IMG/VR virus record: IMGVR_UViG_3300035665_000037
Span: 1-61,315 of that record
DNA length: 61,315 nt
Source of the DNA: a virus
Lineage: Duplodnaviria > Caudoviricetes
Direction: 5' to 3' (one strand)
Shown here: in pieces, positions 1-61,315 of the stretch
How the letters are laid out: every line of letters begins with the position of its first letter
How positions within the stretch are numbered: position 1 is the stretch's first letter
Program-made: the position numbers and the translations under genes
Notes under the pieces: generated by a model
What the model saw: only the letters and a program-made list of their open reading frames with translations
Database searches by the model: none
Told to the model about the DNA's origin: nothing

Positions 1-54
1 CTGCAGTGGTGTTCACAGCAGTAACGATACCCTTGTTAGAAAGACCTGTAGCGT
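1..54. repeat. Terminal direct repeat (circular assembly overlap), copy 1
   Basis: CTGCAGTGGT...CCTGTAGCGT (54 nt) is identical to 61262-61315. Confidence 0.97.
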
Positions 55-412
55 TGTCAGAAATAAATACAGTCTGACCGGCACGGATAGCAATACCACT
101 TACGTTAGCATCGCTTACAGTGATGGTAGCAGAATCTGCAGCAGCAGCCGCAGAAGAGTCGCAGTTCACATATTTAGTGTGAAGACGTCCTTGTTCAGCC
201 CACTTAATCATGTCTGAGTTAGAAGGCATTTCAGCACCTACCATACGAAGGAAAGATGCGATAGTGCGATTACCATAACGCTCGAACTCCTTCTCGTAAG
301 TATCAGGAAGATACTGATTCAAGAAGTTAAAGTTGGTAATATAGTTTGTCGAAAGGGGCACCTGCTCCGCACTTGGCTGAAGCTGATAACCCGGTGAAGG
401 TAAAACTGCCAT
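1..412 (-). CDS. Major capsid protein, 5' part (continues across the junction to 60252; ~473 aa in total)
   Basis: ATG at 412 gives MAVLPSPGYQLQPSAEQVPLSTNYITNFNFLNQYLPDTYEKEFERYGNR...; joins the 60252..61277 ORF in frame through the overlap (412+1010=1422 nt); directly follows the scaffold-like gene. Confidence 0.85.
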   Translation of the reverse strand, partial: MAVLPSPGYQLQPSAEQVPLSTNYITNFNFLNQYLPDTYEKEFERYGNRTIASFLRMVGAEMPSNSDMIKWAEQGRLHTKYVNCDSSAAAAADSATITVSDANVSGIAIRAGQTVFISDNATGLSNKGIVTAVNTTA

Positions 413-430
413 TTTTGTAAATTTTAAATT

Positions 431-1534
431 TTAGATTTTTTTAATGCTGCGGATTTTGAGACTCCTGCCGGAATCCGGTGCGACCGCTTTCACCTGCACT
501 CCCCCCTTATTTACAACTTCAGGTGCTCTACGCTCTGACATATTTATATTTTTAGTCTTGCGCATTACATCATCTGTCGCATCAGCTTGTCCTTGTTCGT
601 AAAAGAACTTGGCAAACCTATCGGGGTTCATTGCAATTGACAAAGCCCTATGGTATCCTGCTGCATCCTTAATCAAGCCCTGATCATCCAAAAACTTATT
701 AATAAAGTTTGTTGGTGTTGATTGAACCTTTTTTAATTCTGACGCAGAACCGGGAGAAAACAAAATCTTCTTGTCGTCAATGTTGAACTCAAAACCTTTG
801 AACTCTTTACTAAAGACTTCGTCAGACTTTTGGTCAAACCACTTACGCTTCCGGTTGTTTTCTTCATTCAGGGTTTTTGCCTGCTGTGTATATTGACGGT
901 ATGCCTCATACTCCTCATTCTCTTCGGGAGACAAACCATTTGCTCTTGACTCAAGAGGCAGTTTGTACTTCTCCTTCTGTTCGTTGAAGTAATTCTTGGC
1001 TTCCGCAATAGCCTTTTTACGTGCGATCTTTATCTTCTTAATTTTAGACTCATCATCAATGTCTTCATCGTACGAGTAGTCCTCCATTAACACATCAATG
1101 TCTTCTTTGTCAAGACCCTTCTGTGTAGAAGCAAGATATTCACGAAGAACTTGATCAGGCTCCATTTCATCGTAGTCCTTGTTGACTTTAATAAAGTCAT
1201 CAAACCCACGGCCTGTCTCCTTCTTAAATTTCATATAAGCAGCTACGTCTTCAGGGAGAGGATCAGACTCTTGTCGTTCTGATACCAACTCATCAAAAGA
1301 GTTTATCTGCTTATTATAGCGTTTTCCAATATATGAAAGAACTTGTTCTTCTGTTAGTTCAGGCTCATCTTCTTTGGTTTGTTCTGTAGAAGTTTCAAGG
1401 TTTGACGTGTCGATTTTTATATCGTTCGTCTGTTCACCGTTCATTTCCTTCTCATGCTTTTCAAGAAGTTCTTTTTCAACTTCCTGTATGCTTTTACCTT
1501 CTGATGAGTCAAGAGCTCTTACTTTGATTTCCAT
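431..1534 (-). CDS. Putative capsid scaffolding protein
   Basis: Acidic, helical 367-aa ORF between portal and capsid genes. Confidence 0.65.
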   Translation of the reverse strand: MEIKVRALDSSEGKSIQEVEKELLEKHEKEMNGEQTNDIKIDTSNLETSTEQTKEDEPELTEEQVLSYIGKRYNKQINSFDELVSERQESDPLPEDVAAYMKFKKETGRGFDDFIKVNKDYDEMEPDQVLREYLASTQKGLDKEDIDVLMEDYSYDEDIDDESKIKKIKIARKKAIAEAKNYFNEQKEKYKLPLESRANGLSPEENEEYEAYRQYTQQAKTLNEENNRKRKWFDQKSDEVFSKEFKGFEFNIDDKKILFSPGSASELKKVQSTPTNFINKFLDDQGLIKDAAGYHRALSIAMNPDRFAKFFYEQGQADATDDVMRKTKNINMSERRAPEVVNKGGVQVKAVAPDSGRSLKIRSIKKI

Positions 1535-1555
1535 TTAATTAGATTTAATTTGATA

Positions 1556-1563
1556 CAAATTTA
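1556..1563 (-). promoter_or_regulatory. Bacteroidota-type -7 promoter element (TAAATTTG)
   Basis: Matches TAnnTTTG in the intergenic gap upstream of the scaffold/capsid genes. Confidence 0.6.
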
Positions 1564-1582
1564 TACAAAAAAACTATATTTC

Positions 1583-4018: not shown

Positions 4019-6255
4019 TTAATAAGTTCACTTAGTGTTCCACCATTAGTGTACCTTGCGAAATTAATACTAATTTTCGACTCTTTTTTCTCAGGTAAAT
4101 ATACATGTTTTTGGTTTGCCATAATAGCTAAACCTGAACTAATAGAAGCATCATGCTTAGTTCTGTCATTAATATCAAATTTTGCCCAATCTTCAAGAGT
4201 CCTTATGAACGGCATTGCACCCATTTCATCCGGATCTCTATAGGTTCCGGTTAGGTCAATACCGATGTATTTTTCTATGTATGTTTCAATTGCCGAAGCA
4301 TGAGCTTGCTTTACTTCCTCCGAAGAGTTCGGTATACCACCAAGCTCCCTTTCAGTTTTACTCAACTTATTGAGTATCCTGTCAGGTCGGTTCATTGAAA
4401 ACGCACGATACCCTCTGTTCTTAAAGTGGTACAATAAACGAGGCTTGTTGTTCTCGGCAAGCACCGGCATCCCATAAAACACGCAAGCCATTAAAACGTC
4501 CTCAAAAAATATCTCAGCCGTCTGAGGTCTTGCTATGTATTCTAAGAAAAACTGACTAACCGGGGCGTCATCCATGTGGTATTTGGTCATCCCATGTAGC
4601 GATCCGTTAGATCCTCTACCTCCAACCACTGCCGATATATCGTATGGGTCACAGCCAAATGATCCAAGATGCTCGTTCCCGGGGTACTTTACCCCATTCC
4701 TTGTAGCCACATTGTTCTGAATATTAGGTGGTGGAAACCAACTCACAAGGAACCGGCCTCTTTGGTCCGGGGTCCATACCACCTTGGTATCCTTTTCCCC
4801 GTCCTTCCAATGAAAGGTACCACGTGTATAGGTATGCTCAGGAATCTGAGAATCATTATAGTCAATCTGTTGGTATATCTTGGTCAGGTTGAATATAGCA
4901 GACTTGCTCTCGTCACGAAAAGCATGGCTTTCAGTGCGAGGAAACTGACGATAGAACTCATTCAGCGCATCGGCATCACTCTTAAGTGATTCAACCTCAG
5001 CCTCCCAATAGTCTATGGCTCCGTTGGTAATCATCCCCCCATCTACACCACGAATAGGCTCTGTCGGCTTTCTAAATACCGGCATACCGTATATATCAAT
5101 GAACCCTTCCATGTTCCATTCCATAGGAATAAATAGGGAATAGAGTCCGCTTTTAGTCTGCCCGTTAGCGTTCCGATTATTTACGGACGAATCCTCGTAC
5201 AATTTCTTGTAGTTATCTCCCCCTTTGCTTAGAGCGTTTGAGGTAGACCCCATCATACACTTGCCCACAATCTTGCTACCAACCCTAAGACAGGTCTTTG
5301 TTACCCTCCAATTGTTCAGGATATTGTTTGGCTTTACCCACTTTGCGCTCTCATCGTGCGCAAGAAACAGTAGCTTTTCACCGTCATAAGAGTTCTCCTC
5401 AGTGTTCTTCCAATCTATCGTGGTGTCGAGACCATCGACACCGCTTCCTTCGGCAGTGTTGGTCATGTTCTTCTTAGTAATCTTTGAAGCCGGTACTCTG
5501 TAGGCAAGCTCAGTCTTAGGCTTGTCCATACCATCCATGATCGGCCGGAAGAAGAATGGCAGCCTGCTATTGATTGGCACCACCTTGTCTGTGAACATCT
5601 TCTTGGCGTCCGCACCCGTTTTAGACAAGATACCTATCCTTGAGTCCCGGGCAAGAGTGGCTAAATTAACGCACTCTGAGGAAGACATAAAGGAAAAGCC
5701 TGAACGTCTGATCTTTAGGTATATCATACCAAAGCACCTTGGGTCTGCCCGGCACGCCTCCCAAAAGATAAAGAATATCCTGTTGGCCTCCCGGTAATCA
5801 GGATAGCCTACGTCAATACTTGACCATTGTAAGTACATGTAGTGAGATCCGGTAACATAGCATGACTTACCATTATTCATAAACCAAAAGCCATTTTCAC
5901 GATAGTCGAACTCCTGCTCAATGTAATCCACCCACCGGTTCTTAAACTCGGCAGGCATCTCGTTCCATTGGAAGATAGACTGAATCTTAGATAGTTCTTT
6001 TGGTAAATCCCTGCGCTCCCAATACTGCTCAGAAGAAATTGAGTCTCTGCTATAACACTCCTTTGGTACTGCCGGTAGGGCAATAATTAGCCCTTCGATA
6101 TTTATGATCTGTCCAATCTGTCCTGTCTTGGAGATAACCACCATATCGTACTGCTCGTTATACCCATACTTCCAAGACCGTACTCCGTTCTTTTTTGATA
6201 TGGCATTCTGTGGCACATGGTCTTTAACGACCCGATATAGACCTTCGTTCTGCAA
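4015..6255 (-). CDS. terL: Terminase large subunit
   Basis: Walker A-like KIRRSGFS, Walker B LAHDE, GSTSN coupling motif, RNase H-like GCDPYD and C-terminal HDASISSG. Confidence 0.9.
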   Translation of the reverse strand: MQNEGLYRVVKDHVPQNAISKKNGVRSWKYGYNEQYDMVVISKTGQIGQIINIEGLIIALPAVPKECYSRDSISSEQYWERRDLPKELSKIQSIFQWNEMPAEFKNRWVDYIEQEFDYRENGFWFMNNGKSCYVTGSHYMYLQWSSIDVGYPDYREANRIFFIFWEACRADPRCFGMIYLKIRRSGFSFMSSSECVNLATLARDSRIGILSKTGADAKKMFTDKVVPINSRLPFFFRPIMDGMDKPKTELAYRVPASKITKKNMTNTAEGSGVDGLDTTIDWKNTEENSYDGEKLLFLAHDESAKWVKPNNILNNWRVTKTCLRVGSKIVGKCMMGSTSNALSKGGDNYKKLYEDSSVNNRNANGQTKSGLYSLFIPMEWNMEGFIDIYGMPVFRKPTEPIRGVDGGMITNGAIDYWEAEVESLKSDADALNEFYRQFPRTESHAFRDESKSAIFNLTKIYQQIDYNDSQIPEHTYTRGTFHWKDGEKDTKVVWTPDQRGRFLVSWFPPPNIQNNVATRNGVKYPGNEHLGSFGCDPYDISAVVGGRGSNGSLHGMTKYHMDDAPVSQFFLEYIARPQTAEIFFEDVLMACVFYGMPVLAENNKPRLLYHFKNRGYRAFSMNRPDRILNKLSKTERELGGIPNSSEEVKQAHASAIETYIEKYIGIDLTGTYRDPDEMGAMPFIRTLEDWAKFDINDRTKHDASISSGLAIMANQKHVYLPEKKESKISINFARYTNGGTLSELIK

Positions 6256-39841: not shown

Positions 39842-40244
39842 AACAGAACAAGACTTAATAAGGGAGAAGAAAGCCATCGAAACATTCGTTAAGATATTCG
39901 GTGGATCATTTAAAAAGCTTGCACCACTTGACATTGACTACAAAGTATTTGACAAAGATGGTACACTCATAGCCTACGCAGAAGTAAAAGGTAGGCTTAA
40001 GACTATGAAGACTGCATACCCACTTCCGGTCGCACTCAGCAAGCTGAGTAAGCTTATTGAGAAGAGATTAAACCCGGTCCTGATATGGGCCTGCGATGAT
40101 GGTATTATTTACGGCAAAGTATTCTCACTTGTCGGTGAAGTAAAAATCGGTGGCCGCCCACCGAGAGATGGGTCGACCAATGATGTAGAGATGATGGTAT
40201 ACTTTGACTCTCAAAGATCACTCAAGTATGTTAGGTTTACCTGA
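39828..40244 (+). CDS. Putative PD-(D/E)XK nuclease
   Basis: DIDY...AYAEVKGR motif. Confidence 0.6.
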   Translation: MTIFETEQDLIREKKAIETFVKIFGGSFKKLAPLDIDYKVFDKDGTLIAYAEVKGRLKTMKTAYPLPVALSKLSKLIEKRLNPVLIWACDDGIIYGKVFSLVGEVKIGGRPPRDGSTNDVEMMVYFDSQRSLKYVRFT

Positions 40245-43200
40245 TCGACTCAGAGTCTCTTTTGTACTTTGATTTGAAAGACTTCAATCTGTTGCGATAC
40301 TTTAGTCTGCGTTTCTGTGCAGGAGTATAGCCTCTCTCTTCGTCTTCCATTTCCTGAAGCTTCTTATTCAGTTCCTTCTCTACCTCCATCTCTGCTTTGT
40401 TCTCTAAATAGTATTGACTATTCTCTCCAAAGGTTTGCTCATAGAGTTCAGGATCGTAACGCTTCATGTCAGTCTTGTTATCATATCCCTGAAGAAGCTC
40501 CTTCATCTTTTCATCCTTCTCTACTTTCATCTTTTTCTTTTCAGACTGAATGGCCTTCTTTTCTTCGTCACTCATGCTTAGTTCATCAATCATATCTTCA
40601 ATGGCCTTGATCTTATCAGCATCTACCTCATCGTTTTTAAGTTGTTCAAGTGCGTTGATCTTATCTTGTTTACCCTGCTCCAACTTCTCTTTTCTTTCTC
40701 CTGAAATTCCTTCTGCTCTTTTTTCTAACTCAACATCTTCTCTTGTCTTACCGCCCTCAACAGTAGATGCAGATCTCTTAGCATCAGCAAGTGATGAACG
40801 AACAATACTGTTAACCTCTGATGGAGTAAGTCCAAGATTGGATACGATTGCAATAGGAATCAACATACCGATAGCATCTCTGTCTTCTTCAGATAGATAC
40901 TTCTTACGTCCATAGTCATCCTCGTATGGAAGGCCGGCAGAAAGCTTAGACATCTCATATAATTGGTTGATACGAGAAGCTGAGATACCGAGAAGGCCTA
41001 AGCTTTGGAAGAAGTCCTGTTTGTTACCTGAATAAATCTCAAGCCTTTCTTCTTCGTCAATGTCAAGAGCATCTTGTGTTGCATCTAATACTGCAGATGC
41101 TCCCATCTGTACGGCCTTATCAAGTAGCGGAGCAGGAGAGAATACATCGGCTACTGTACTTGTAAGCTGACCTTTCATGATGGCATCTATCTTCTTCTTA
41201 TCTTTCTCCTCATCGTCTTCTCTACCCATAAATTCTTTTACAACTTCTGCAATGAGTAAAGCTGAACCGGCAGACAATGCTCTGAATGTAACCATCTCCG
41301 CAGCGAAACCACCAAGAGATCGAGCAGCTATCTTCTTATCCTCAATAGTTGATGTCTTGTCGGTAAGCGTAGCAAGATCGGAACCAAGCCTTGCAGATTG
41401 GTTCATCCTGAACGATGCGAATGGCATAAGAACCTTTACAAACAATTGCTTGCTTGCATCTTTACTTGATAGAAGCGCACCGGCAAGATCAGAATCAGAC
41501 ACGTTCTGCTGACGGTCAACCTGACGCTGAGCGTAGTCAGCAGCCTTCTGATTAATCTTATGGTTATTGTAGTCTATTGTTTTTGTATCAATACCCTGCT
41601 TCTCAAGAGACTGCTCGTAGTACGTCATCCAAGATGCACGAGCAATGGCCACGTCAAAACGAACAAGTAAATTCTTAAGCCACCAATTGTTTACTTTCTC
41701 GATAGCCCTGAATGCTTGTTCGGGTTTGCTTTTTGCAGCCTCGTCAATCATTTTATTGAGGGACTCAATCTGAGCTTGTGATTCTACGCCACGATTTGCA
41801 ATGGCGTATCCTGATTTGTTAATGAAGTTTTGTTTTGCTGTATCAAATGTTGACCTTATGTCCAAGCCTCCTGCGTTGATAAACGTGTTCATGGCGATAG
41901 GAACAACTTGTTTGATTGGCTGAAGCACACCACCAAGAGCCTGACCAACACCGATAGATGCAAGTCTGTTAAGTCCTTTCACTGCTTTAGAGAACTCATC
42001 GTTTGAGAATGGGTTCTTGTTACGGATATTCTTTATGTATAAATCAATCCTGTTTCTAAGAAGCTTCTCGTCTCCGGTACCTTTCATTATTCTACTGAAG
42101 GCATCAGAGTTAAGAGCAGATTGTACCTGACGAATAGGTGCTGCAGTGTTGATGTCAACAAGTGCATCATACATTGCGTTTGAGTTATTCTTATCAAACG
42201 ATAGGTCGATGTATCTATTTGGCTTCTCTGTCTTTGAGTTTTGTGGAAGCGACTCAGGACGAGTAGCAGCCATCAATACCCCTGTTTCTTTTTTGTACAA
42301 CGGAGCAGTACCACTATTGACAAGGAATCCCATGTCTTCTGCAGTGATGTCAACCTCTCCGGGATCAGAGCTAAGCTTAGTGAATCTATCAGGAGTATAG
42401 TTAATATCCTTATCCAACACTTTGTTATACACACCAAGAGCTACATCTGATAGTTCTTCATAAGATTCAGCCCATTGCTGCTGCCAAAAGTTTACTGCTT
42501 CCAAGTTTTCTTCTGCAGCTTTTTCTTGTACTTGATCAATACTATCTGAATCTTTTAGGATCTTATCATATACCTCTTGATAAGTATTGGCTTTCTCTAT
42601 CTCTTGATCATTACCTTTCTCGAGTTCTGTTATTGACTCTTCAATTAATTTCTTTCTTCTCTGAAACTCTGCCTGCATTTCGGCTTCCGTTCCAATAATA
42701 TTTCTTGACATGAACGCAACCATACCACGCTCCACATTGTTAGCGGCAGTATTAAACGCCTGTCCATTAGGCTTCATCTTGTAGAACTTATCTACGTATT
42801 GCTTAACAATACTATTGGATTTGTTCTGAGCTTTTGACTTCCCACTTTCTACTTGGCTCACACCCATTGCATCTTCAACCATACCACCTTTGGTAAAGCC
42901 TCCGAACATACGCTCGAACACAATATTAAGGTTCGCTGTCTGCTCAAGTAGAAGTCTTCCAAGACCTTTAGACCAATACTTACTGATTGGCTTAGCCTTG
43001 ATACCTTTCTTTTCCAAAGCTTTCATCTCAGCCTCACCTTTATACTTGGAAAGAACTGACTCCATCTTTGCGATGGATTTGTTTTGGAAGAAGTTCATCA
43101 GTGCATCTACCGCTTCAAGTGCCTGCTTTGGTTTGAGTACGTTCAGGTCCATATCCATGAACTCTTTGACTACTCTTTTCTGATTAGCAGTATACTCTAC

Positions 43201-46200
43201 ATCTTCACCGGTAAATAAATCCTTGCCTGTTTTAAGAGATCCTTCTATCAGAGATGAGTATATATCAAACGCCTTATTGATAGCTGAACGAACCAATGCT
43301 TCGTTATCTTTTGTCAATGGCTTATCACTCTCAAGCATCTGCATGAGCTGATCGTATGTAAGCTCTGAAGCATCTACACCCAACAGTTCCTGAACCTCAG
43401 CAACCTTAAGATCGAACAACTTCTTACGCTGCTCCTCCATTGTCTTATTGATGTAATCTGTAGCGTCAGCCTCTCTTACCATATTAGTAAACTTCACATC
43501 AGCACCACGAGTAGTAGACCCTTTGATAGAGTCCTTGATGATAGCAGCTACCTTATTGTATTCGTCAATATTATCCACCATTGATGGATCAATCTCAGCG
43601 AACTTAGAACCTAAGTCACGAAGGTTCGCAAACTTGTCCTTGTTCTTTGAAAGCTTGCGTATCTGTGTGCGCATAGTATTTGCTGCGCCTAACTTATTGG
43701 CGTACTCAGCGTCTGCAAACAGCTTACCTGCATAGTCAAGAAGTCTTTCTACAGACTCATTGCTATCAAGGTTAACCTTGCCTATTCTATTTACAAGAGC
43801 AGCTACCCTGTTGGCAGCAATCTTTCCTGTAGATGCCATCCTACGAATGGCGTCAGTAAGCATCTTTCTTTTTGTATTGAGATCACCTTTGGCTTCACGG
43901 GCAGCACGAGCTTCAAGTTTTATTTGATTGACCATCATTTTGTAATCGTCAACCGTTACCATAGTTTTCTCCTGACCTAATATTTTCTTTACGCTTGGCG
44001 CACGCTTCTCTCTCTTTTTAAATCTGCTTCTGATGTCACGAACAAGGGCCTCACGTTGTACGTCAGTAGCATTCTCATAAGCCTTTGACTTCTTCATGTA
44101 CTCCATGACATTGTCCATGATCTTATTGAATGGCACCCCTCTGTTCTCAGATTTCTTTATCACACCTTCGATCTCGCCCATCATCCTGTCGTATCCGGGC
44201 AGGTCTGCCTCAGTCAACTCTTGACTAATCTCTTCCATAACCTCAGCTTCAGGGATACGATCAGCATCTCCCAAGTCGTTCTCGTCAATCTGATAGAACT
44301 CTTCAGGTAGAAGACCAACCTTCTGATCTGCAAATGAAATCTGATCGTAGATCTCTTCAACCTTCTTCCTTGCCTGAGCAAACAGTCCTTCTTCACGAAG
44401 TGCTCTTGCTTGCTCTCTTAATTCATTAACTCTATCGTTAACTCCTGAGAAGTTTACAAATGAGTTCTGACCACGAGTCTCTGTAGTCATAGCCTTGCGT
44501 GCTTCGGGCGAGAACATACGAGCGTGTACGTTCCATGCGTTCTCTTCCCCTTTGGGACCGAATGAGTTGCCGAGTTCAGCGTGTCCATAGAAATCATGGA
44601 TCGCACGAAACACGTCATTGATTAGTAGTGGTTTTCCATTAATATCTTTTATGCCTGAATCACGTAGTAGTGGATTCTCGGCTCTTTGTTTGTCTGTTAT
44701 TTTGCTATCACCGAAGCCTGATTCAGTAGAGAAGATCTTCATTCTCTTATTGTTTCTCAGGTCGTCAATCATTTCCTGAGAGTTGTTGTATGGCTCGTTG
44801 TTGTTTATCTCAACCTTGTATCCGGCTTTAGCAAACTCATTGTATTGATCAAGCGTTTCTTTAGCAAGAGCTTCGTATGCAGCTTTAACCTCCGGGTTAT
44901 TGGGGTCGTGCTTCATTGCATCGAACGCATCAGAGATACGCTTGGCTCTCGCTTCGTCTAAGCTTTTTGACCCATAGTATGGGGGCCTTGGCCTTCCGAA
45001 AACTCTTTGGAAATATCTATTCGCAATTTCTGCAACTGCCTCGATGGGCTTATTGAAAAGTCTGTTTCCTGCTCTTGGTTTGAAGTAGTCATCAACTTCG
45101 ACTCCTTGGAACTCGGCATCTCTTCTAACGGCCTCCTCGAGGGACGGTAGAATGTTTTCCCTGCCTTGGACAGGTCCGGCCCCTGTGCCTTTAATGCGTC
45201 CAAGAATTGCTTTCCTTTTTGCCTTGCCAACTCTTGTCGAGTTAAGGGGCTTGTAGACTTGTTGTTCATAATTTATTCCTTTAGATTCTAATTCAATTAA
45301 AAAGTTACCAATGTTTTCCTGTAATTGTGGATCTGTAAAGTCAAGTACATCAATGAACGAGATCTCCCCGTTCTTCTCATTAATGCTGAAGTCTGTGATT
45401 CCTGCAGCCTTGAGGGCGTCAATAGCTCCATCAACATCTGATACCACTACGGTATATTCATTGGCCTTATGATCAGTGCCTCCCTCTTGATTTAGATATT
45501 GAGCTGCTATTGTAGCCTCTTGTACTTGTGGTGCCAATGCTCCGGCAAGTGCAGCAAACTCTTCGGCCTGCTCCATAGTTGCGTTCTCAAGATCAACATC
45601 GTTTGAGATCTCTACAATTCTTTCGCCTTTCTCATTCTCGTACCCACCAATAGTTTCAAGTGGCGTAACCTTTATACCAAGCTTAGCCCCTATATCATTA
45701 AGAGACTGCAGGTAACCCTGATATTCAGGTGACTGCCTGAGTTGAGCAGCTTCCTGAGTTGTAGCAATCTGAGTATTGAAGAAAGGTGCAACTTTAACTC
45801 TTGTAACAGCAGGTGCTACCTCTTCAACTTTAATAGGTTTGGTTTCAAGCAATGTTCCTTGTTCAGTAATCTGAGTAGCCAAGTCTATTGGCACAAGATT
45901 ACCTGTCTCTAAGTCTATTGTAGCCTGATCAGTTACTTCGTACTTCTTACCATCAAGCTCAAATACTTTTACTTCTTTTGCTTGGACTTTACCTTCTTCG
46001 GTAACGCCTTGAGGTTCTGCTTTGGTGACTCCTTGCGCCACTTCTTGGCCACTTCCGGTTGTTGGCTGTACAGGTACTTCACCTGCTGCTTGCTTTTGAA
46101 CGGCATTTTCTTGTATGGTTTTAATTTGTGAACGAATCTGCGCAGCTTTGTCTTTGCCAATCTGCGTAGTATTACCCTCTAATTTTCTTAATTCTTTTTC

Positions 46201-47727
46201 AAGATTTGTTACCTCATCCAATTGCTCTTCTGTAAGATTTGGATTAGCTTCTCTCGCTTGCTCCTTAATAGAAGAAGTAACAATCTTATCTTGTAGTTTT
46301 ACTTTAAGCTCAGGGTCATTGGTGATTTCAATATTGGCCATTGATAAATCAGCAGCACTCATATTGTCAATCATGCTTTCAATTACCTTACGAGGTTCCT
46401 GAATACCTTCTTCTGTTTCTATTGGCTGTATCTTAATACCATTGAAACTATAAGATGAAGGACCACCTCTTTCTGCTTGCGTCTCAAGTTCTTTTATCTG
46501 ATCCTCTACAACCTTAGCTTCTTCATTCTTTCCTTGCTTTCTAAGCAGCTTAGCATTGGCACCCATTGCGTTGAGCAAAAAGCCTACGCCAAAACCTACG
46601 CCACCTGATGAACCAACGCCCTCAAATATTTCTTGGTTTGCATTGTAAATATCTTGAGCAGTTTTGTTTGCATAGATCTGTTGCAGTACCTCAGTAGTCA
46701 TCTCTTCCAATCCACCCGTTACACCTGCTACACCTTTGGTCTTAAGATAGTTTGCGATACCACCTGCTGAAGCTTTATTGAATCGCTTCATGAATTGCAT
46801 GACAGGAATCTTTTCTAATATGGAACCCACTGCAGCATTCTTCCAAAAAGCTTCAAAGGCCTCATCATCTGTGGCACCTGCTTCTTTCGCTCTATCAAAT
46901 TCAGCCTGACCCATAGTAAGACCGGCACTAACTGCAACAGGGCTTGCCAATTCTGAAGCAAGACCTTTAACTGCTGTGCCAACAGTTACAACTTTTGGTG
47001 CAGTCTGTGCAGCCATAGCTGCCGTAGCTGCCTTCGCTGCCGTAGTACCTGTTCCTGCTGCACCTAAAGCAGCAGCCCCCTTACCAACAGCAGCAGCTCC
47101 ACCTGCTGTCAAAGCTAATGAAGCTAATTGCCCAAAGGCTTGAGAGAATTGATCGGTTAAGCTTCCTTTAAACTCTTCATCCATTGGAGCAAGCTCATCA
47201 ATGGTATTATTAAAGTAGTCTCCAAACTTAATTAAGGCATCACTGATAGGACCTTTCTTTACTTTACCAAAGGTCATATATTCAGTACCCTTTTCAATAA
47301 GAGTACCCAACCCTTTCACAGGACTACCAATAAGGTTTTTATAAAAGCCTCTGTCAATCGCAGAGACTGTATTCATTAACCAACCCTGACCATCATCTGT
47401 CTTCTTATCTTCTTCAGTAAGAGGAGCAATCATCCGTGGCTTAACAGCCGTTGACTCAGCAACTGCAGTCTTTGGTAAGGCCAAAGAACCATCTTCCAAA
47501 GCAGATACCGTATCGAACTTTTTTTTTTGAGGTACCTGTCCTCCAACGCCCATCAATAACTTGAAGTCGTCAACAGTTTTTTTGTATCCATTTTCAGCAA
47601 ACAAAGAATATGAATCTTGTAATGCCTGTGGATTAGATGCTATTAACTTCTTGTATTCATCAAGAGATTTAGTATACCCATTCTGTACAAACAGATTATA
47701 TGCGTCCAATATTGCTTGCTCGTTCAT
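40237..47727 (-). CDS. Giant putative internal virion/ejection protein (2496 aa)
   Basis: Mostly helical; Ala/Gly-rich membrane-like N-terminal segment; last gene of the tail operon; internal HDFYGH..GEENAW domain. Confidence 0.7.
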   Translation of the reverse strand: MNEQAILDAYNLFVQNGYTKSLDEYKKLIASNPQALQDSYSLFAENGYKKTVDDFKLLMGVGGQVPQKKKFDTVSALEDGSLALPKTAVAESTAVKPRMIAPLTEEDKKTDDGQGWLMNTVSAIDRGFYKNLIGSPVKGLGTLIEKGTEYMTFGKVKKGPISDALIKFGDYFNNTIDELAPMDEEFKGSLTDQFSQAFGQLASLALTAGGAAAVGKGAAALGAAGTGTTAAKAATAAMAAQTAPKVVTVGTAVKGLASELASPVAVSAGLTMGQAEFDRAKEAGATDDEAFEAFWKNAAVGSILEKIPVMQFMKRFNKASAGGIANYLKTKGVAGVTGGLEEMTTEVLQQIYANKTAQDIYNANQEIFEGVGSSGGVGFGVGFLLNAMGANAKLLRKQGKNEEAKVVEDQIKELETQAERGGPSSYSFNGIKIQPIETEEGIQEPRKVIESMIDNMSAADLSMANIEITNDPELKVKLQDKIVTSSIKEQAREANPNLTEEQLDEVTNLEKELRKLEGNTTQIGKDKAAQIRSQIKTIQENAVQKQAAGEVPVQPTTGSGQEVAQGVTKAEPQGVTEEGKVQAKEVKVFELDGKKYEVTDQATIDLETGNLVPIDLATQITEQGTLLETKPIKVEEVAPAVTRVKVAPFFNTQIATTQEAAQLRQSPEYQGYLQSLNDIGAKLGIKVTPLETIGGYENEKGERIVEISNDVDLENATMEQAEEFAALAGALAPQVQEATIAAQYLNQEGGTDHKANEYTVVVSDVDGAIDALKAAGITDFSINEKNGEISFIDVLDFTDPQLQENIGNFLIELESKGINYEQQVYKPLNSTRVGKAKRKAILGRIKGTGAGPVQGRENILPSLEEAVRRDAEFQGVEVDDYFKPRAGNRLFNKPIEAVAEIANRYFQRVFGRPRPPYYGSKSLDEARAKRISDAFDAMKHDPNNPEVKAAYEALAKETLDQYNEFAKAGYKVEINNNEPYNNSQEMIDDLRNNKRMKIFSTESGFGDSKITDKQRAENPLLRDSGIKDINGKPLLINDVFRAIHDFYGHAELGNSFGPKGEENAWNVHARMFSPEARKAMTTETRGQNSFVNFSGVNDRVNELREQARALREEGLFAQARKKVEEIYDQISFADQKVGLLPEEFYQIDENDLGDADRIPEAEVMEEISQELTEADLPGYDRMMGEIEGVIKKSENRGVPFNKIMDNVMEYMKKSKAYENATDVQREALVRDIRSRFKKREKRAPSVKKILGQEKTMVTVDDYKMMVNQIKLEARAAREAKGDLNTKRKMLTDAIRRMASTGKIAANRVAALVNRIGKVNLDSNESVERLLDYAGKLFADAEYANKLGAANTMRTQIRKLSKNKDKFANLRDLGSKFAEIDPSMVDNIDEYNKVAAIIKDSIKGSTTRGADVKFTNMVREADATDYINKTMEEQRKKLFDLKVAEVQELLGVDASELTYDQLMQMLESDKPLTKDNEALVRSAINKAFDIYSSLIEGSLKTGKDLFTGEDVEYTANQKRVVKEFMDMDLNVLKPKQALEAVDALMNFFQNKSIAKMESVLSKYKGEAEMKALEKKGIKAKPISKYWSKGLGRLLLEQTANLNIVFERMFGGFTKGGMVEDAMGVSQVESGKSKAQNKSNSIVKQYVDKFYKMKPNGQAFNTAANNVERGMVAFMSRNIIGTEAEMQAEFQRRKKLIEESITELEKGNDQEIEKANTYQEVYDKILKDSDSIDQVQEKAAEENLEAVNFWQQQWAESYEELSDVALGVYNKVLDKDINYTPDRFTKLSSDPGEVDITAEDMGFLVNSGTAPLYKKETGVLMAATRPESLPQNSKTEKPNRYIDLSFDKNNSNAMYDALVDINTAAPIRQVQSALNSDAFSRIMKGTGDEKLLRNRIDLYIKNIRNKNPFSNDEFSKAVKGLNRLASIGVGQALGGVLQPIKQVVPIAMNTFINAGGLDIRSTFDTAKQNFINKSGYAIANRGVESQAQIESLNKMIDEAAKSKPEQAFRAIEKVNNWWLKNLLVRFDVAIARASWMTYYEQSLEKQGIDTKTIDYNNHKINQKAADYAQRQVDRQQNVSDSDLAGALLSSKDASKQLFVKVLMPFASFRMNQSARLGSDLATLTDKTSTIEDKKIAARSLGGFAAEMVTFRALSAGSALLIAEVVKEFMGREDDEEKDKKKIDAIMKGQLTSTVADVFSPAPLLDKAVQMGASAVLDATQDALDIDEEERLEIYSGNKQDFFQSLGLLGISASRINQLYEMSKLSAGLPYEDDYGRKKYLSEEDRDAIGMLIPIAIVSNLGLTPSEVNSIVRSSLADAKRSASTVEGGKTREDVELEKRAEGISGERKEKLEQGKQDKINALEQLKNDEVDADKIKAIEDMIDELSMSDEEKKAIQSEKKKMKVEKDEKMKELLQGYDNKTDMKRYDPELYEQTFGENSQYYLENKAEMEVEKELNKKLQEMEDEERGYTPAQKRRLKYRNRLKSFKSKYKRDSESIR
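44958..45269 (-). CDS. Candidate nested gene 2 (+1 frame within the giant gene)
   Basis: 103 codons, ATG start, A-rich leader AATCTAAAGGAATAAATT. Confidence 0.4.
   Translation of the reverse strand: MNNKSTSPLTRQELARQKGKQFLDALKAQGPDLSKAGKTFYRPSRRPLEEMPSSKESKLMTTSNQEQETDFSISPSRQLQKLRIDISKEFSEGQGPHTMGQKA
45969..46106 (-). CDS. Nested small basic protein (MPFKS type), +1 frame within the giant gene
   Basis: MPFKSKQQVKYLYSQQPEVAKKWRKESPKQNLKALPKKVKSKQKK; leader AAATTAAAACCATACAAGAAA. Confidence 0.7.
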   Translation of the reverse strand: MPFKSKQQVKYLYSQQPEVAKKWRKESPKQNLKALPKKVKSKQKK

Positions 47728-51678: not shown

Positions 51679-52938
51679 TTATAGACATGCTGATTCGCAA
51701 GTAGAAAATGAATTTAAGGTTAATGTGTTACCTATGTCTCCGCTTACTACAGTATAAACAGCCGTAAAAATACTCGCTACTCCATTGTTTTGACAAGCAG
51801 CATCAACTATAATACCGGTACAGTATGCGTTTGCATAAGTATTCGGAGAAGATGTACATTGATCACAAACTACCTCAACATTAATTGTGTCACCTACTCC
51901 AACATTAAATGTACCGTTTGATGTACTACTTCTGCTTTCAATAACTGAACCATTTACATACAAGTCCATGTTACCGCTTATGCCTGACATTGTATAATTC
52001 CAATTCAATGTAGCAAATCCCGGAGAATCACAAGTTCCAAATCCAATAATCACACCATTGGCATCTACCTGAAACCAATCATTAGCTCCTGCTGCAGTTG
52101 TTTTGTAGTATCCTGCAGCTAACTTGAACTCTCCATTAGCATCACTAAAAACTAAGTCATACAATCCAAGAGTACCTGCTGACCCATTGACATAAGCCAC
52201 ATAGTAAGTTTGGGTTATAGAAAGAGCACAAGCCAATGTATCACTCGCAGCCATAGAAGACGAAGCAAATGATGGTAGAGCAGCAGGACAAGCAACCGAT
52301 AAATCAAATGCTGTACCTACACATGGCCCTATAAACTGCAAGTCAAGTATTGATGGAGATGCAAATGTTTTTGGTATTACCATTACGCAATTTCCGGGGC
52401 CACCTGCGGTTAAATCCATCTGACCGGATAATACAGTTACTGAAGTTGTGGTTCCTAACGAAACAAAAGAAGTTCCATTATATTCATACTCATTAAGCGT
52501 ATAAGGAGAGTTTGCAACAATACCACAATCTGCACCATTGGTTCCTATATAGGTAGGCAAACCTGCACTACCTTGTAGCCATCCGTATGCAGGAGAAGAT
52601 AGACCATTGTAAGATATGCTATTAAGCACACCTAACACACCATCAGGTACGCTATATGGGTCAAACGTAACCACAACTGCTCCTAAGTCAGTGCCCAAGT
52701 CTATCCCAACATAGTATATTCCTTGCTGTCCTGATGCTGATATTGAACCACCACACGGAACTCCGCAAGATGGGCAAGATGTTTGTGGTAATAGAGCACC
52801 TGATACTTGCTCACGGGATATAACCCCATCAGAATAGAATCCATCAGGAGCGACTGTGGTCAAGTTAACATCAGTGTAAATAATTGTAGCCGATCCAAGA
52901 GAAGGTGCGTCTACATAAAAAGTTCCTTGTGTTGCCAT
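51679..52938 (-). CDS. Cys-rich putative tail decoration protein
   Basis: N-terminus paralogous to 52950..53195; multiple Cys-flanked beta modules. Confidence 0.65.
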   Translation of the reverse strand: MATQGTFYVDAPSLGSATIIYTDVNLTTVAPDGFYSDGVISREQVSGALLPQTSCPSCGVPCGGSISASGQQGIYYVGIDLGTDLGAVVVTFDPYSVPDGVLGVLNSISYNGLSSPAYGWLQGSAGLPTYIGTNGADCGIVANSPYTLNEYEYNGTSFVSLGTTTSVTVLSGQMDLTAGGPGNCVMVIPKTFASPSILDLQFIGPCVGTAFDLSVACPAALPSFASSSMAASDTLACALSITQTYYVAYVNGSAGTLGLYDLVFSDANGEFKLAAGYYKTTAAGANDWFQVDANGVIIGFGTCDSPGFATLNWNYTMSGISGNMDLYVNGSVIESRSSTSNGTFNVGVGDTINVEVVCDQCTSSPNTYANAYCTGIIVDAACQNNGVASIFTAVYTVVSGDIGNTLTLNSFSTCESACL

Positions 52939-57681: not shown

Positions 57682-58605
57682 TTATTTTAACCACTTGTCC
57701 ATCCCACGTAGGTTCATAAGAAGTCTACCCGGATGAATGTTACTCATTCTTATTTTAGCATTACGAAGCAGTGCTGCTTTTTCTTTACGAGCACGAGCCA
57801 CAATGTACTCTTGTACACCAAGCTTTGAATTAAGTATCTCGTATTGAACGTATGCGTAAATATATTTTTCAAATAGTTTGTTAACACTAACCAATGCGTC
57901 ATTGCCATTCTCCATACCATCAGAGATGTATTCAAGAATAACAGACTGACCATACATGTCAGCGTTAAAGTTTATCACACCTGATCTTGTGTCAATCGCA
58001 AATGTTGGATTGAAGTTTGCAGTCTCTGTGTTGAGACCATAACGCTCACCAAGACCATATTCAAAATACCAAACACCATCAATATCCCATCCCTCTTGTC
58101 CATAGTATTGGCTTTGTGGATTAAGGTAAATGCTTTTCTTAATACCCTCTAAACGCTGCAAATCAATTTGAGAAAATTGAGGAGATAGTGCGTTGCCATC
58201 TTGGTCAAATAAAATTTTTCCGGTTTGATCTTGCAAGTATGCAAGTGATGATAGTATCTGAATATTTTCTGTAAGTGGTCTAAGGTAACCGTCTTTATAC
58301 AAGTTTACTCTTACCCAATTAACGTAGTCTGAAGGTAGAATATACCTAAGTGTATCATCAACTGTAAGCTCTAATACTTTTATCTGCTTGAACGCATCAT
58401 AGTTAAGTTCTTGCACAGCACGCTTAGCGTGAAATAATATCTTGAATCTTTCTTCATTATTTACGAGCGAGTGGTTTCCTGCATACATCAACATAAAGTT
58501 GTTGACAATGTCAAATAGACTCACATATTGATATGAGCCCCAATTGGCATCTGTGGGTTGATTGCCACCGTTTTCGTAGTATTGATATTGACTAATATAC
58601 GACAT
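57682..58605 (-). CDS. Putative tail ring/adaptor protein
   Basis: LPSDYVNWVR, ILEYISDG. Confidence 0.6.
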   Translation of the reverse strand: MSYISQYQYYENGGNQPTDANWGSYQYVSLFDIVNNFMLMYAGNHSLVNNEERFKILFHAKRAVQELNYDAFKQIKVLELTVDDTLRYILPSDYVNWVRVNLYKDGYLRPLTENIQILSSLAYLQDQTGKILFDQDGNALSPQFSQIDLQRLEGIKKSIYLNPQSQYYGQEGWDIDGVWYFEYGLGERYGLNTETANFNPTFAIDTRSGVINFNADMYGQSVILEYISDGMENGNDALVSVNKLFEKYIYAYVQYEILNSKLGVQEYIVARARKEKAALLRNAKIRMSNIHPGRLLMNLRGMDKWLK

Positions 58606-58607
58606 GA

Positions 58608-59348
58608 TTATACTGATTGTTTTTGTTCTTCAGTTGCCCCAAATTGAACAGCGGCTATCTCACGAATAGACATTCCTGCGTATTGAAGAATCTTTGTCAC
58701 AAGTTTAAACTCATCTTCATAAGGAACTTCAAAATCTTGATAGTCAGGCTGAGACTGATCAAATACCGGCTCACCATTTGTTAACGAAATATAGGTCCAC
58801 TTAGGATCTTTTGGATACCTAAAATAATTTGCTTCAACTTCATTCGGTAGATTGATAGTTGATGGATAAACTGTCATAATACCATTCTCTTGCGTATACG
58901 CAGGGTACTGTTCTGTTGGAGCAGTAAGGTTTGACGTATTAAGCATTGTGATTTTGGTATGCGTTATCTTCTCTGCTTCTCCTTTAAATACTCGTGGGCT
59001 TACTGATGCGTCATAACAAAGCACCTTATTGATCATGAAATAATCAAACCCTGTAGTAGTAGGAGAAGGAAGATAAAATCTGTTTGTGGCAGGAGCAACT
59101 TGCGATAGTGTTGATGTTACTGAAAATAATTCCATTGCTTCTTCAATCGCTTTGCGTATGTCGGCATATCCTGTTCCTGATGTACGAAGGTTCTCCATAT
59201 TTAAGATCTTATTGTACTCAGAAAAATACTCTTCAAAGGTCTCAAGCTGAGCCTGTTTGGCGTACAGATTGAAATCGGATGGGGATATGTATCCGTAGTT
59301 ATTCTTGTTCAGAATAGATAAGACTGTATTTCTTACGGAATTTATCAT
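58608..59348 (-). CDS. Putative tail ring/adaptor protein
   Basis: NKNNYGYISPSDFN..AQ, YFRYPKDPKW. Confidence 0.6.
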   Translation of the reverse strand: MINSVRNTVLSILNKNNYGYISPSDFNLYAKQAQLETFEEYFSEYNKILNMENLRTSGTGYADIRKAIEEAMELFSVTSTLSQVAPATNRFYLPSPTTTGFDYFMINKVLCYDASVSPRVFKGEAEKITHTKITMLNTSNLTAPTEQYPAYTQENGIMTVYPSTINLPNEVEANYFRYPKDPKWTYISLTNGEPVFDQSQPDYQDFEVPYEDEFKLVTKILQYAGMSIREIAAVQFGATEEQKQSV

Positions 59349-59361
59349 TATTCGCTTTTTA

Positions 59362-59369
59362 CAAAGATA
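59362..59369 (-). promoter_or_regulatory. Bacteroidota-type -7 element (TATCTTTG) for the tail operon
   Basis: TAnnTTTG upstream of 59348. Confidence 0.55.
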
Positions 59370-59372
59370 AAC

Positions 59373-59402
59373 AAAAAAAAGAGGGAGAATTAAATCCCCC
59401 TC
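59373..59402 (-). terminator. Intrinsic terminator
   Basis: GAGGGGGA-loop-TCTCCCTC followed by a T8 tract on the minus strand. Confidence 0.7.
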
Positions 59403-59429
59403 TAAGCTACAATTTATATCACTTAAAAC

Positions 59430-60176
59430 CTACTGTAAATTATTTTCAAGCATTTTTAAAGCGTCAATTCCATCGTCAGTCTTTAAGAACTCGGCAATTG
59501 TAAAGTATGGGTCCTGACCATAAGGAACAGTTAACATCTTTTTCTTATTGGAAACAGTATTAAACCACACCTCTTTTTGGCCATTTCTGAACGTCAAAAG
59601 CTTGTTTTCAAAGAACACGTGTACATTGGATTGAAGCTTAAGCATTGGATCGCTAAGCATATTTATAAACCCAACAGGGTCTTTTTTGGCATAAACCAAA
59701 ACATCACGCTTTAATTCTGCTGTTGTAAATCTTGAAGGATCTTTACCGAACAGAACCCTTGCTGCTGTTTCAAGCTGCTCTACAGATAGCTGACGAGCCT
59801 GAACCAAAGCATCTACTTCGGCACTCAAACTTTCAACTTCTTTAGCTGCATCTTTCTCAGTATCAACCTCTACGAAGGTACGCCCATTAAGGGGGTGGTA
59901 GTAGAGGAACTGTTGTAGGACCGGGTTGTTTTTAGGAACCTGAAGGAATCCATTCTCAAATATAATAGGCTCAACAATGGCGTTTCCATCTTGCTCATCC
60001 TCAAAAGGGGTCTTTTGATTAACGGCATATCTGAGTGGTCTATTGACATTGTTTTCCTCATCAAACCACAATAGTGGGAATCGTCTTGTATTTCGAGAAG
60101 GGATAGTGTAAGATAGAGGAGCAGAATCTCCTTTTAGTTTATATATCCTGTCAGCAGGAACTATATTCTTTTTCAT
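59430..60176 (-). CDS. Hypothetical protein downstream of the capsid gene
   Basis: 248 aa, AATC-repeat leader. Confidence 0.75.
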   Translation of the reverse strand: MKKNIVPADRIYKLKGDSAPLSYTIPSRNTRRFPLLWFDEENNVNRPLRYAVNQKTPFEDEQDGNAIVEPIIFENGFLQVPKNNPVLQQFLYYHPLNGRTFVEVDTEKDAAKEVESLSAEVDALVQARQLSVEQLETAARVLFGKDPSRFTTAELKRDVLVYAKKDPVGFINMLSDPMLKLQSNVHVFFENKLLTFRNGQKEVWFNTVSNKKKMLTVPYGQDPYFTIAEFLKTDDGIDALKMLENNLQ

Positions 60177-60200
60177 TAAATTTTAATTTGATTAGATTTT

Positions 60201-60241
60201 TAAAATAAGGGGGAGTGCCGTTTGGCACCCCACCCTTTATT
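60201..60241 (-). terminator. Putative terminator after the capsid gene
   Basis: GGGGTGCC-aaac-GGCACTCC hairpin followed by TTATTTT. Confidence 0.6.
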
Positions 60242-60251
60242 GATTGCTTGC

Positions 60252-61315
60252 TTATGAACCGTAACGGAACAACACGAAGTTGTTAGCACCCAAAGTACAA
60301 ACGCAACGCTCAGAAAGGAAGTTAACCTCCATTGCATCGAGATCGCTTGTTTGAGCACCACCGGCAGAACCTGTGATCCAAGTCTTGTAACGGCGGTCTT
60401 CAGTCTCAGAAGCACGGTAGCGAACGTGTAAGAACGGACGCTTAGCGTTCTTGCCAAGGATTTGGTCGTATACAGATGTAGAACCTGCAGGAACCAAAAG
60501 ACCTGTTACAGTACCTGCGGCTTGAGCACCTGTAGGAAGACCACCACGCATGGTAGGATCGTTCAAGTACTTCCAATCAGACTTGTAGAAGTCGTAACCT
60601 CTGCGGAAGCCTGTGAAGCCAAGGTTTAATGCCATGTCTTTGTCGTTGTCGAACAAACCGTAAGATGTACCGTTTGCTCCGTAGCTGTTTTGAGCAGCCA
60701 ACATATCGTCAATGTCAAAGCTGAAGGCACGGTTTACGAAGATTACGTTCTCTTCGATTGCACCTTGCTTGTCAAGACGAGAGATGATGCTGTCAAAGTC
60801 TACAAGGGTAGTTGGGTTACCACCGCCCCATACGTTACCACGATCGTTAACAACGTAGAAGATACCTTCTGAACCTTTGTTACCGTAAAGTGGGTTAAGT
60901 GAAGCGTTAGCAGCACCTGAACCTGACTCAGCAGGAACAGCCTCGATCATTGCAGTCTCAAGGTAGTCCTCAAAACGCAAGCGAGTTTCGTGCTCACTCT
61001 TCAAATACCAAAGGTATCCGGTAGCACCGTTCTCGGTTGTTACTTCTACCCATCCAATCTGAGCCATGTCAGAACCGCTTACAGCGTATTTGTCCTTGAT
61101 GATGATTGGAGAGTTGTCGAAGATCTCATCTTCTGCTTCCAAAGAACCGATCATTCCAACAGTTCCTTTCTTGAACTCAGAACCGTAGATCCATACAGAA
61201 AGAACGGCTGTGCCTGAGAAAGTTTGACCACCGGCTTCGTAGTAAGCAACATCGAAAGTACCTGCAGTGGTGTTCACAGCAGTAACGATACCCTTGTTAG
61301 AAAGACCTGTAGCGT
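60252..61315 (-). CDS. Major capsid protein, 3' part
   Basis: In-frame continuation of the 412..1 ORF. Confidence 0.85.
   Translation of the reverse strand, partial: ATGLSNKGIVTAVNTTAGTFDVAYYEAGGQTFSGTAVLSVWIYGSEFKKGTVGMIGSLEAEDEIFDNSPIIIKDKYAVSGSDMAQIGWVEVTTENGATGYLWYLKSEHETRLRFEDYLETAMIEAVPAESGSGAANASLNPLYGNKGSEGIFYVVNDRGNVWGGGNPTTLVDFDSIISRLDKQGAIEENVIFVNRAFSFDIDDMLAAQNSYGANGTSYGLFDNDKDMALNLGFTGFRRGYDFYKSDWKYLNDPTMRGGLPTGAQAAGTVTGLLVPAGSTSVYDQILGKNAKRPFLHVRYRASETEDRRYKTWITGSAGGAQTSDLDAMEVNFLSERCVCTLGANNFVLFRYGS
61262..61315. repeat. Terminal direct repeat, copy 2
   Basis: Identical to 1-54. Confidence 0.97.

Follow-up and report, generated by a model that had tools for sequence, protein, structure and literature searches.

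We examined a window of 61,315 bp, the whole of IMG/VR virus record IMGVR_UViG_3300035665_000037, which carries direct terminal repeats, at the gene for a giant virion protein of 2496 aa (40237..47727, minus strand). Wholly inside this gene, on the same strand and in a different frame, lies a small open reading frame (ORF) of 45 codons plus stop (45969..46106, minus strand). Its ATG is at 46106, 1621 nt into the giant gene and hence in the +1 frame, its stop codon occupies 45971-45969, and the overlap takes up codons 541-586 of the giant gene. The translation is exactly the 45-aa peptide MPFKSKQQVKYLYSQQPEVAKKWRKESPKQNLKALPKKVKSKQKK, which is basic and ends in a Lys-rich tail. Before the ATG, within the host coding sequence (CDS), is an A-rich leader that lacks a Shine-Dalgarno (SD) motif and is a putative internal translation-initiation region (46107..46131, minus strand). 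A companion ORF of 103 aa, likewise at +1 relative to the giant gene, occupies 44958..45269 on the minus strand. The small ORF, the leader and the main-frame residues (ENAVQKQAAGEVPVQPTTGSGQEV) quoted in a first-pass annotation of this DNA are all present, on the minus strand. From comparative sequence analysis, we hold that window positions 46106..45969 truly encode a protein, as a gene nested at +1 within that of the giant virion protein, and give this reading a probability of roughly 0.85.

Taken by itself, the length of the small ORF is no more than chance. The giant gene's two alternative sense frames contain three ATG-started ORFs of at least 45 aa, against 3.69 +/- 1.64 expected from 300 codon shuffles. 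This count favors a frame that is open by chance, has no function, and resembles other sequences only through the giant protein's own conservation, as does the NAVQKQ motif, which is conserved in the main frame across the small-ORF start. The A-rich leader, described below, and the conservation of the small ORF, by contrast, both lie far outside chance. When the giant gene's first 2728 nt were compared by blastn with 50,697 phage records, one conserved stretch emerged, query 1614-1741, which corresponds to window 46114-45987 and is the small ORF; the flanking giant-gene DNA showed no conservation in the same search. The stretch is present in 69 records, 68 from Flavobacterium Elemovirus phages and one from a Manatee Spring podovirus. 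In all 69 GenBank records the annotation under the match is the giant CDS only, in keeping with the first-pass suggestion of a functional nested gene that annotation had missed. In two representative loci (L001, L002), the +1 frame holds an MPFKSK... ORF of 42-43 aa followed by a stop.

Relatives of the giant gene were also collected without the small ORF. An alignment of giant residues 1201-1401 with their homologues led to 80 IMG/VR loci, and in 64 of these the +1 frame holds a homologue of 37-56 aa that begins with ATG (56 distinct peptides). Start ATG and stop are kept in 64 of 64 carriers. In these alignments the frame, ATG and length of the small ORF are conserved across deeply diverged phages. 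Several points weigh against the gene here. The small ORF is missing from 16 of the 80 loci; six of these have 5'-truncated giant ORFs, and the other 10, with complete giant 5' ends, gave no small-ORF match in any of the six frames. Five full records (G001-G005, from L089, L095, L096, L100 and L104), four of them rated 100% complete, hold no MPFKS homologue anywhere; as a positive control, the family profile A1, which includes the window sequence itself, finds the window ORF at E=4.6e-25 and has this one match in the whole window genome. The small gene is dispensable in these relatives, or replaced by something unrecognizable, and is common in the lineage without being universal. The alignment used for the fetch was, moreover, built from giants first found via the small ORF and may favor carrier lineages.

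The overlap lies in a variable segment of the giant gene, between a mosaic N-terminal part and a conserved core (~aa 1200-2200) in the conservation profile. The giant protein has no Pfam match, matches PHROG 3170 at aa 1025-1095 only, and is labelled "structural protein" and nothing else in its GenBank relatives.

Which frame selection sees can be read from the differences between relatives. For main-frame codons encoding the same residue in the window and a relative, we counted synonymous changes separately for the overlap and for the remainder of the gene. Against L083, the closest relative, 0 of 29 overlap codons had changed versus 748 of 1706 elsewhere (44%, p=8e-8); the corresponding values were 1/30 versus 531/1038 (51%) for L086 and 0/29 versus 207/459 (45%) for L149. 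The same pattern held in 7 of 7 relatives compared, although these pairwise counts, like the difference counts below, share a phylogeny and are hence not independent events. Differences at main-frame codon positions 1, 2 and 3 amount to 0.31, 0.13 and 0.07 in the overlap and 0.44, 0.34 and 0.60 elsewhere, an inversion at the third position which indicates that the usual third-position peak has moved to the third position of the small frame. Among 32 distinct nested copies, entropy likewise peaks at the small-frame third position (1.04, versus 0.55 at the main-frame third).

The direction of change was read from 1034 differences between the window and 50 relatives, every one with a peptide starting MPFKS, a restriction that tempers the result. 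Changes silent only in the small frame were observed 517 times, with 46 possible; changes silent only in the main frame, 149 times, with 68 possible; and changes silent in neither frame, 368 times, with 153 possible. Per possible change, those that spare the host (149/68) are thus no commoner than those that alter both proteins (368/153). Selection in the overlap acts on the small frame, and host residues drift almost freely. Both signatures that the first-pass annotation had named for a real gene, an ATG conserved in giant-gene homologues and purifying selection in the +1 frame, are seen: the first in the 64 of 80 loci with an intact ATG-started +1 copy, the second in the suppressed synonymous change (0/29 versus 44% for L083) and in a periodicity that follows the small frame. 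A chance frame would account neither for a main-frame third position that is the least variable in the overlap nor for an excess of small-frame-silent changes over main-frame-silent ones when fewer of them are possible. It also runs against the unconserved flanks, against an unrelated ~400-aa host protein that resembles the giant in this stretch alone, and against the existence of stand-alone homologues, and we regard it as hardly credible.

These stand-alone homologues form a large family. A word search with the peptide returned 25 small database proteins of 41-62 aa (E 2.4e-14 to 1.7e-2). In the resulting alignment A1 (26 sequences, window included) MPFKS, Q8, A20 and L35-P36 are invariant; in the broader alignment A4 (62 sequences) M1, P2 and Q8 are invariant and F3, K4 and S5 are conserved at 90% or more. 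The window peptide fits the family pattern of helix, Pro17, helix, A20, an aromatic residue at 23, L35-P36 and a Lys/Arg tail. A scan of IMG/VR gave 388 tblastn-confirmed family places, 80 of which were kept for locus analysis. A profile search of 1.84 billion representatives reached 5160 50%-identity clusters at E<=1e-3 and 793 at E<=1e-10, with matches that begin at residue 1 in nearly all and protein lengths from 45 to 980 aa. The widespread family of stand-alone small phage ORFs that the first-pass annotation named does exist, as the 25 small proteins, PHROG 1375 and the 5160 clusters attest.

PHROG 1375, a family of small phage proteins with function not assigned, is matched by 23 of 37 family members (best E 3.6e-7); its entry gives no function and no hint of nested copies. 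The window's own peptide matches it weakly (E=0.14), a weak point in the case for the gene. Searches of Pfam and NCBIfam produced no consistent match, whether the query was the peptide, a set of 37 or 62 family members, the giant protein or the ~400-aa hosts. In the ESM Atlas, the nearest cluster with any Pfam family has DUF3008 (PF11450) in 15% of its members (score 0.86), a lead only; membership of DUF3008 was rejected, with no match at E<=1 for 37 members nor at E<=10 for the window peptide. Among isolate phages, Streptomyces phage FlowerPower has an annotated stand-alone family member, a 72-aa hypothetical protein beside "peptidase" and "holin" genes, and tblastn of a stand-alone member against isolate phages found seven Streptomyces phage records only (E<=1e-3), a search in which such short queries have little power. 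One subfamily of nested peptides, MPFK[SN]K..KACY...PKWDC.KW, has two conserved cysteines, both lacking in the window version; it comprises L088, L091, L105, L133, L135, L150 and L158, and also L001 and L002. The two cysteines could form a disulfide or bind a metal.

Given the family alignment, AlphaFold2 predicts a helical hairpin, helices 6-15 and 17-26, followed by an extended Lys-rich tail (mean pLDDT 88.8). The best BFVD structural matches of the model are 44-aa uncharacterized phage proteins (TM 0.77-0.80), and Foldseek against the PDB found no meaningful match to the 45-aa model.

Strong synonymous suppression would equally arise if the conserved island were a functional element of the RNA or DNA itself (for example an RNA structure, internal promoter or packaging signal) and the reading frame were incidental. 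Contigs of relatives match the window within the ~140-nt island only, as such an element might require. Those from RNA libraries align inside the small ORF alone, and their similarity stops at 46105/46106 and 45970; these limits fit a conservation island, and the contigs are uninformative on transcription or translation of the small ORF, the uncovered parts being meaningless. Against a nucleic-acid element stand the clean 3-nt periodicity of variation in the small frame and the retention of ATG, stop and a length of 37-56 aa in every carrier. Amino-acid substitutions in the small protein are conservative across subfamilies whose DNA has diverged, the alignment yields a confident AlphaFold2 fold, and the same protein is encoded by an ordinary gene in unrelated genomic contexts. 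An incidental frame is hence very improbable. Antisense ORFs of 68-318 aa, which lie opposite the small gene in six loci (L034, L041, L044, L046, L054, L066), fall into one cluster (c7) and are probably spurious, their frames kept free of stops by the Lys-rich sequence conserved on the opposite strand.

The peptide might instead be an alternative C-terminal tail of a truncated giant protein, made by programmed +1 frameshifting. One metagenomic protein, P0087 (1075 aa), looks like such a product: a giant-like N-terminal part continues in frame through the MPFKS module up to the module's stop codon. The module is also C-terminal in 6 of 120 longer proteins. Read upstream from the ATG, however, the +1 frame meets a stop after 1-14 codons in almost every nested locus (several at 1; up to 30 in L040), so soon that no room is left for a conserved shift site, and a programmed +1 frameshift product was rejected on this ground. 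The Met and the MPFKS N-terminus are invariant, stand-alone genes included; the module sits at residue 1 in 107 of these 120 proteins and, with few exceptions, in the 150 best representatives; and the Met is kept even in internal and C-terminal cases, with one exception (P0120). We judge frameshifting improbable. P0087 itself may reflect a natural split or fusion, or else a frameshift introduced in assembly, and could be an intermediate in the origin of the overlap.

The small protein would be made by independent internal initiation at its own ATG, for which the leader at 46107..46131 may serve as the initiation site. At positions -20 to -1 the leader is 65% A, in the top 1% of the giant gene's 153 internal ATGs; across the window genome, mean leader A content is 47% at real gene starts and 33% at internal ATGs. 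Upstream of 80 distinct nested starts, the A fraction averages 0.57 against a background of 0.35 (p=1.8e-42). SD-like motifs precede 5 of these 80 starts versus 7% in the background, and this lack of enrichment taken alone speaks against initiation there. An A-rich, SD-less, conserved leader fits a Bacteroidota-type host, since such hosts initiate without SD, and relatives of this phage infect Flavobacterium. Elsewhere in the window, many gene starts (for example upstream of 30907, 32666, 59430-60176 and 51679-52938) have A/T-rich motifs of the type AAATTAAA...ATCAA just before the ATG and no SD sequence; the leader of the nested ORF contains AAATTAAAAC.

The companion ORF fared differently. 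The first-pass annotation had paired the two ORFs as a dual-frame system that co-produces small basic partners with the giant protein. The companion at 44958..45269 is open in the closest relative L083 only and has many stops in L086, L149 and L084. Of the four comparisons, only that with L083 shows lowered synonymous change within it (0.27 versus 0.45, p=0.005). With the frame broken in three relatives and no consistent synonymous constraint, the dual-frame proposal is not supported, and we rejected the companion as a conserved gene; either its frame is open by chance or the ORF is very young and specific to its lineage.

The small gene occurs in more than one genomic architecture. Across 79 loci, window included, it is nested in giant ORFs in 33 and in ORFs of ~385-440 aa in 18; 25 have no spanning same-strand ORF, several of them in tight gene arrays, and three are ambiguous. 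It lies at +1 in both nested classes, probably because only one alternative frame of the Lys/Gln-rich sequence stays open. With the overlap masked, the nesting hosts resolve into two unrelated families and two singletons, and the ~400-aa hosts resemble the giants across the overlap only. The 18 loci with ~400-aa hosts share a conserved module of terminase, portal, host gene and virion structural proteins, in which the small ORF sits at the 5' end of the host gene. None of five records from this lineage has a match to the giant core, a count made uninformative by their completeness of 37-83% each.

The window carries the same module: terminase at 4015-6255 and portal at 1583-4018, both by PHROG matches, and a 367-aa homologue of the ~400-aa host at 431..1534 on the minus strand, 38% identical to the L053 host over aa 17-362. 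This homologue has neither the N-terminal extension nor a nested ORF. A "virion structural protein" gene of the window (region 1-6255, 57682-61315, minus strand) is split across its ends, 60252-61277 and 2-412, and both pieces match cluster c3 of the related loci. The window genome is complete, circularly permuted and podovirus-like. For window 45000-47000, 16 lake-water or freshwater DNA runs contain at least half of the sampled words, and nine of them may be the window's source DNA.

The distribution of the family bears on its origin. The first-pass annotation spoke of overprinting, a new gene born inside an old one, and here the evidence runs opposite: the small frame is widespread and strongly constrained, and the host linker frame evolves almost freely, unlike a de novo overprint. 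De novo overprinting is accordingly not supported, given the 5160 clusters, the varied stand-alone contexts and the restriction of nested copies to two host families plus two singletons. A widespread, constrained family with stand-alone members and a second nesting host makes the small gene look older than the overlap. We infer from these distributions that the small gene would be the older partner and would predate the overlaps. Neighboring virion genes would then have extended their frames across it, the giant in one lineage and the portal-adjacent ~400-aa gene in another.

What the small protein does is a separate matter. Stand-alone copies recur beside head genes. In L038 the order is portal, small gene, scaffold and major head protein; in the L051 type (four loci) the portal is followed by a 99-aa protein (c6) and then the small gene, and this 99-aa neighbor matches part of a "minor head protein and DNA pilot" PHROG. 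Other stand-alone loci have terminase or virion structural genes nearby. As a module, MPFKS also heads longer proteins, among them two Phage_Mu_F proteins, P0065 and P0069, of which it forms the N-terminus. Further MPFKS N-termini stand on EncFtn-like/rubrerythrin and LigD 3'-phosphoesterase plus ligase domains (P0097 and P0080, alongside the Phage_Mu_F domains of P0065 and P0069), and the spread of such fusions would fit a targeting or delivery handle. With copies beside portal, scaffold and terminase genes and MuF proteins that carry the module at their N-terminus, the small basic protein may reside in the head interior or near the portal, or serve as a handle when heads are assembled or DNA is delivered, a guess that we hold tentatively and at distinctly less than even odds. 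A predicted complex of the small protein with the window portal protein scored 0.00, which is evidence neither way.

A real gene with a role unrelated to head or portal, for example a nucleic-acid-binding regulator or a host-takeover or anti-defense peptide that travels with late genes, is a serious contender whose chances fall only a little short of even. Stand-alone copies are also found beside tail-fibre/endolysin, primase/helicase, ligase and ribonucleotide-reductase genes, and the fusion partners are heterogeneous (DUF5661, DUF6321, EncFtn-like, LigD_N plus ligase, NUDIX), with nucleic-acid enzymes among them; both facts tell against a head function. The Lys-rich tail, too, would suit nucleic-acid binding. 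On the other side, the small gene is found repeatedly beside portal/scaffold and terminase genes, its two nesting hosts both belong to the virion module, and MPFKS is fused to Phage_Mu_F minor head proteins.

A broader picture, speculative and unlikely to be right in full, would make MPFKS a mobile module of ancient origin, ~40 aa long, which attaches to the inside of the head or to the portal and acts as an N-terminal "delivery handle". By itself it would serve as a small basic protein of the head; as a fusion, it would bring cargo into the capsid, namely MuF proteins and enzymes (ligase/phosphoesterase, NUDIX, lysozyme, ferritin-like). It would have been engulfed at least twice by neighboring virion genes in Bacteroidota podoviruses, with the small gene ancestral and the giant's linker written over it, which amounts to overprinting in reverse.

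The architecture is that of known embedded phage genes, by analogy with Rz1 in Rz and phiX174 E in D. In phage lambda, the spanin gene Rz1 is embedded in the +1 frame of Rz. The window pair is alike in that a larger phage gene contains, in its +1 frame, the whole of a small gene with its own start, and both families show embedded and separate architectures in different phages. It differs in its nesting hosts, a giant virion protein and a portal-adjacent gene instead of a lysis gene, and in a peptide without Cys, lipoprotein signal or hydrophobic segment. With no lipobox Cys and no hydrophobic stretch, the window peptide is not a spanin, and an o-spanin (Rz1-like) identity was rejected.

Small viruses have overprinted genes, such as phiX174 E within D. 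As in that type, two proteins come from one DNA stretch and synonymous change in the host frame is suppressed; here, however, the embedded frame is the widespread and constrained one and the host frame is loose, the reverse of the usual new gene inside an old gene. The minor head proteins of the MuF/SPP1 gp7 type, whose genes usually sit after the portal gene, are alike in two respects, the N-terminal MPFKS module of the two Phage_Mu_F proteins and the stand-alone small genes that follow a portal gene. They differ in that the small protein lacks a MuF domain and the giant host lacks any Pfam match. Overprinted and overlapping viral genes are the subject of reviews (PMC8227390, PMC3494269), and in the literature covered, with subscription journals and supplements outside the search, no description of this nested gene was found.

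Gene callers discard ORFs nested in longer ones, and at least 69 deposited phage genomes, along with many metagenomic viral contigs, lack this conserved gene in their annotation. It belongs to a large uncharacterized family of 5160 clusters with no Pfam entry; Flavobacterium phages that carry it exist in culture, as do their hosts. Its recurrence beside portal, scaffold and terminase genes and as a MuF-type N-terminus marks it as a candidate module for head assembly or protein delivery. The two frames here give a direct reading of selection, with the embedded gene apparently the older, and this bears on how overlapping genes originate in large double-stranded DNA phages.

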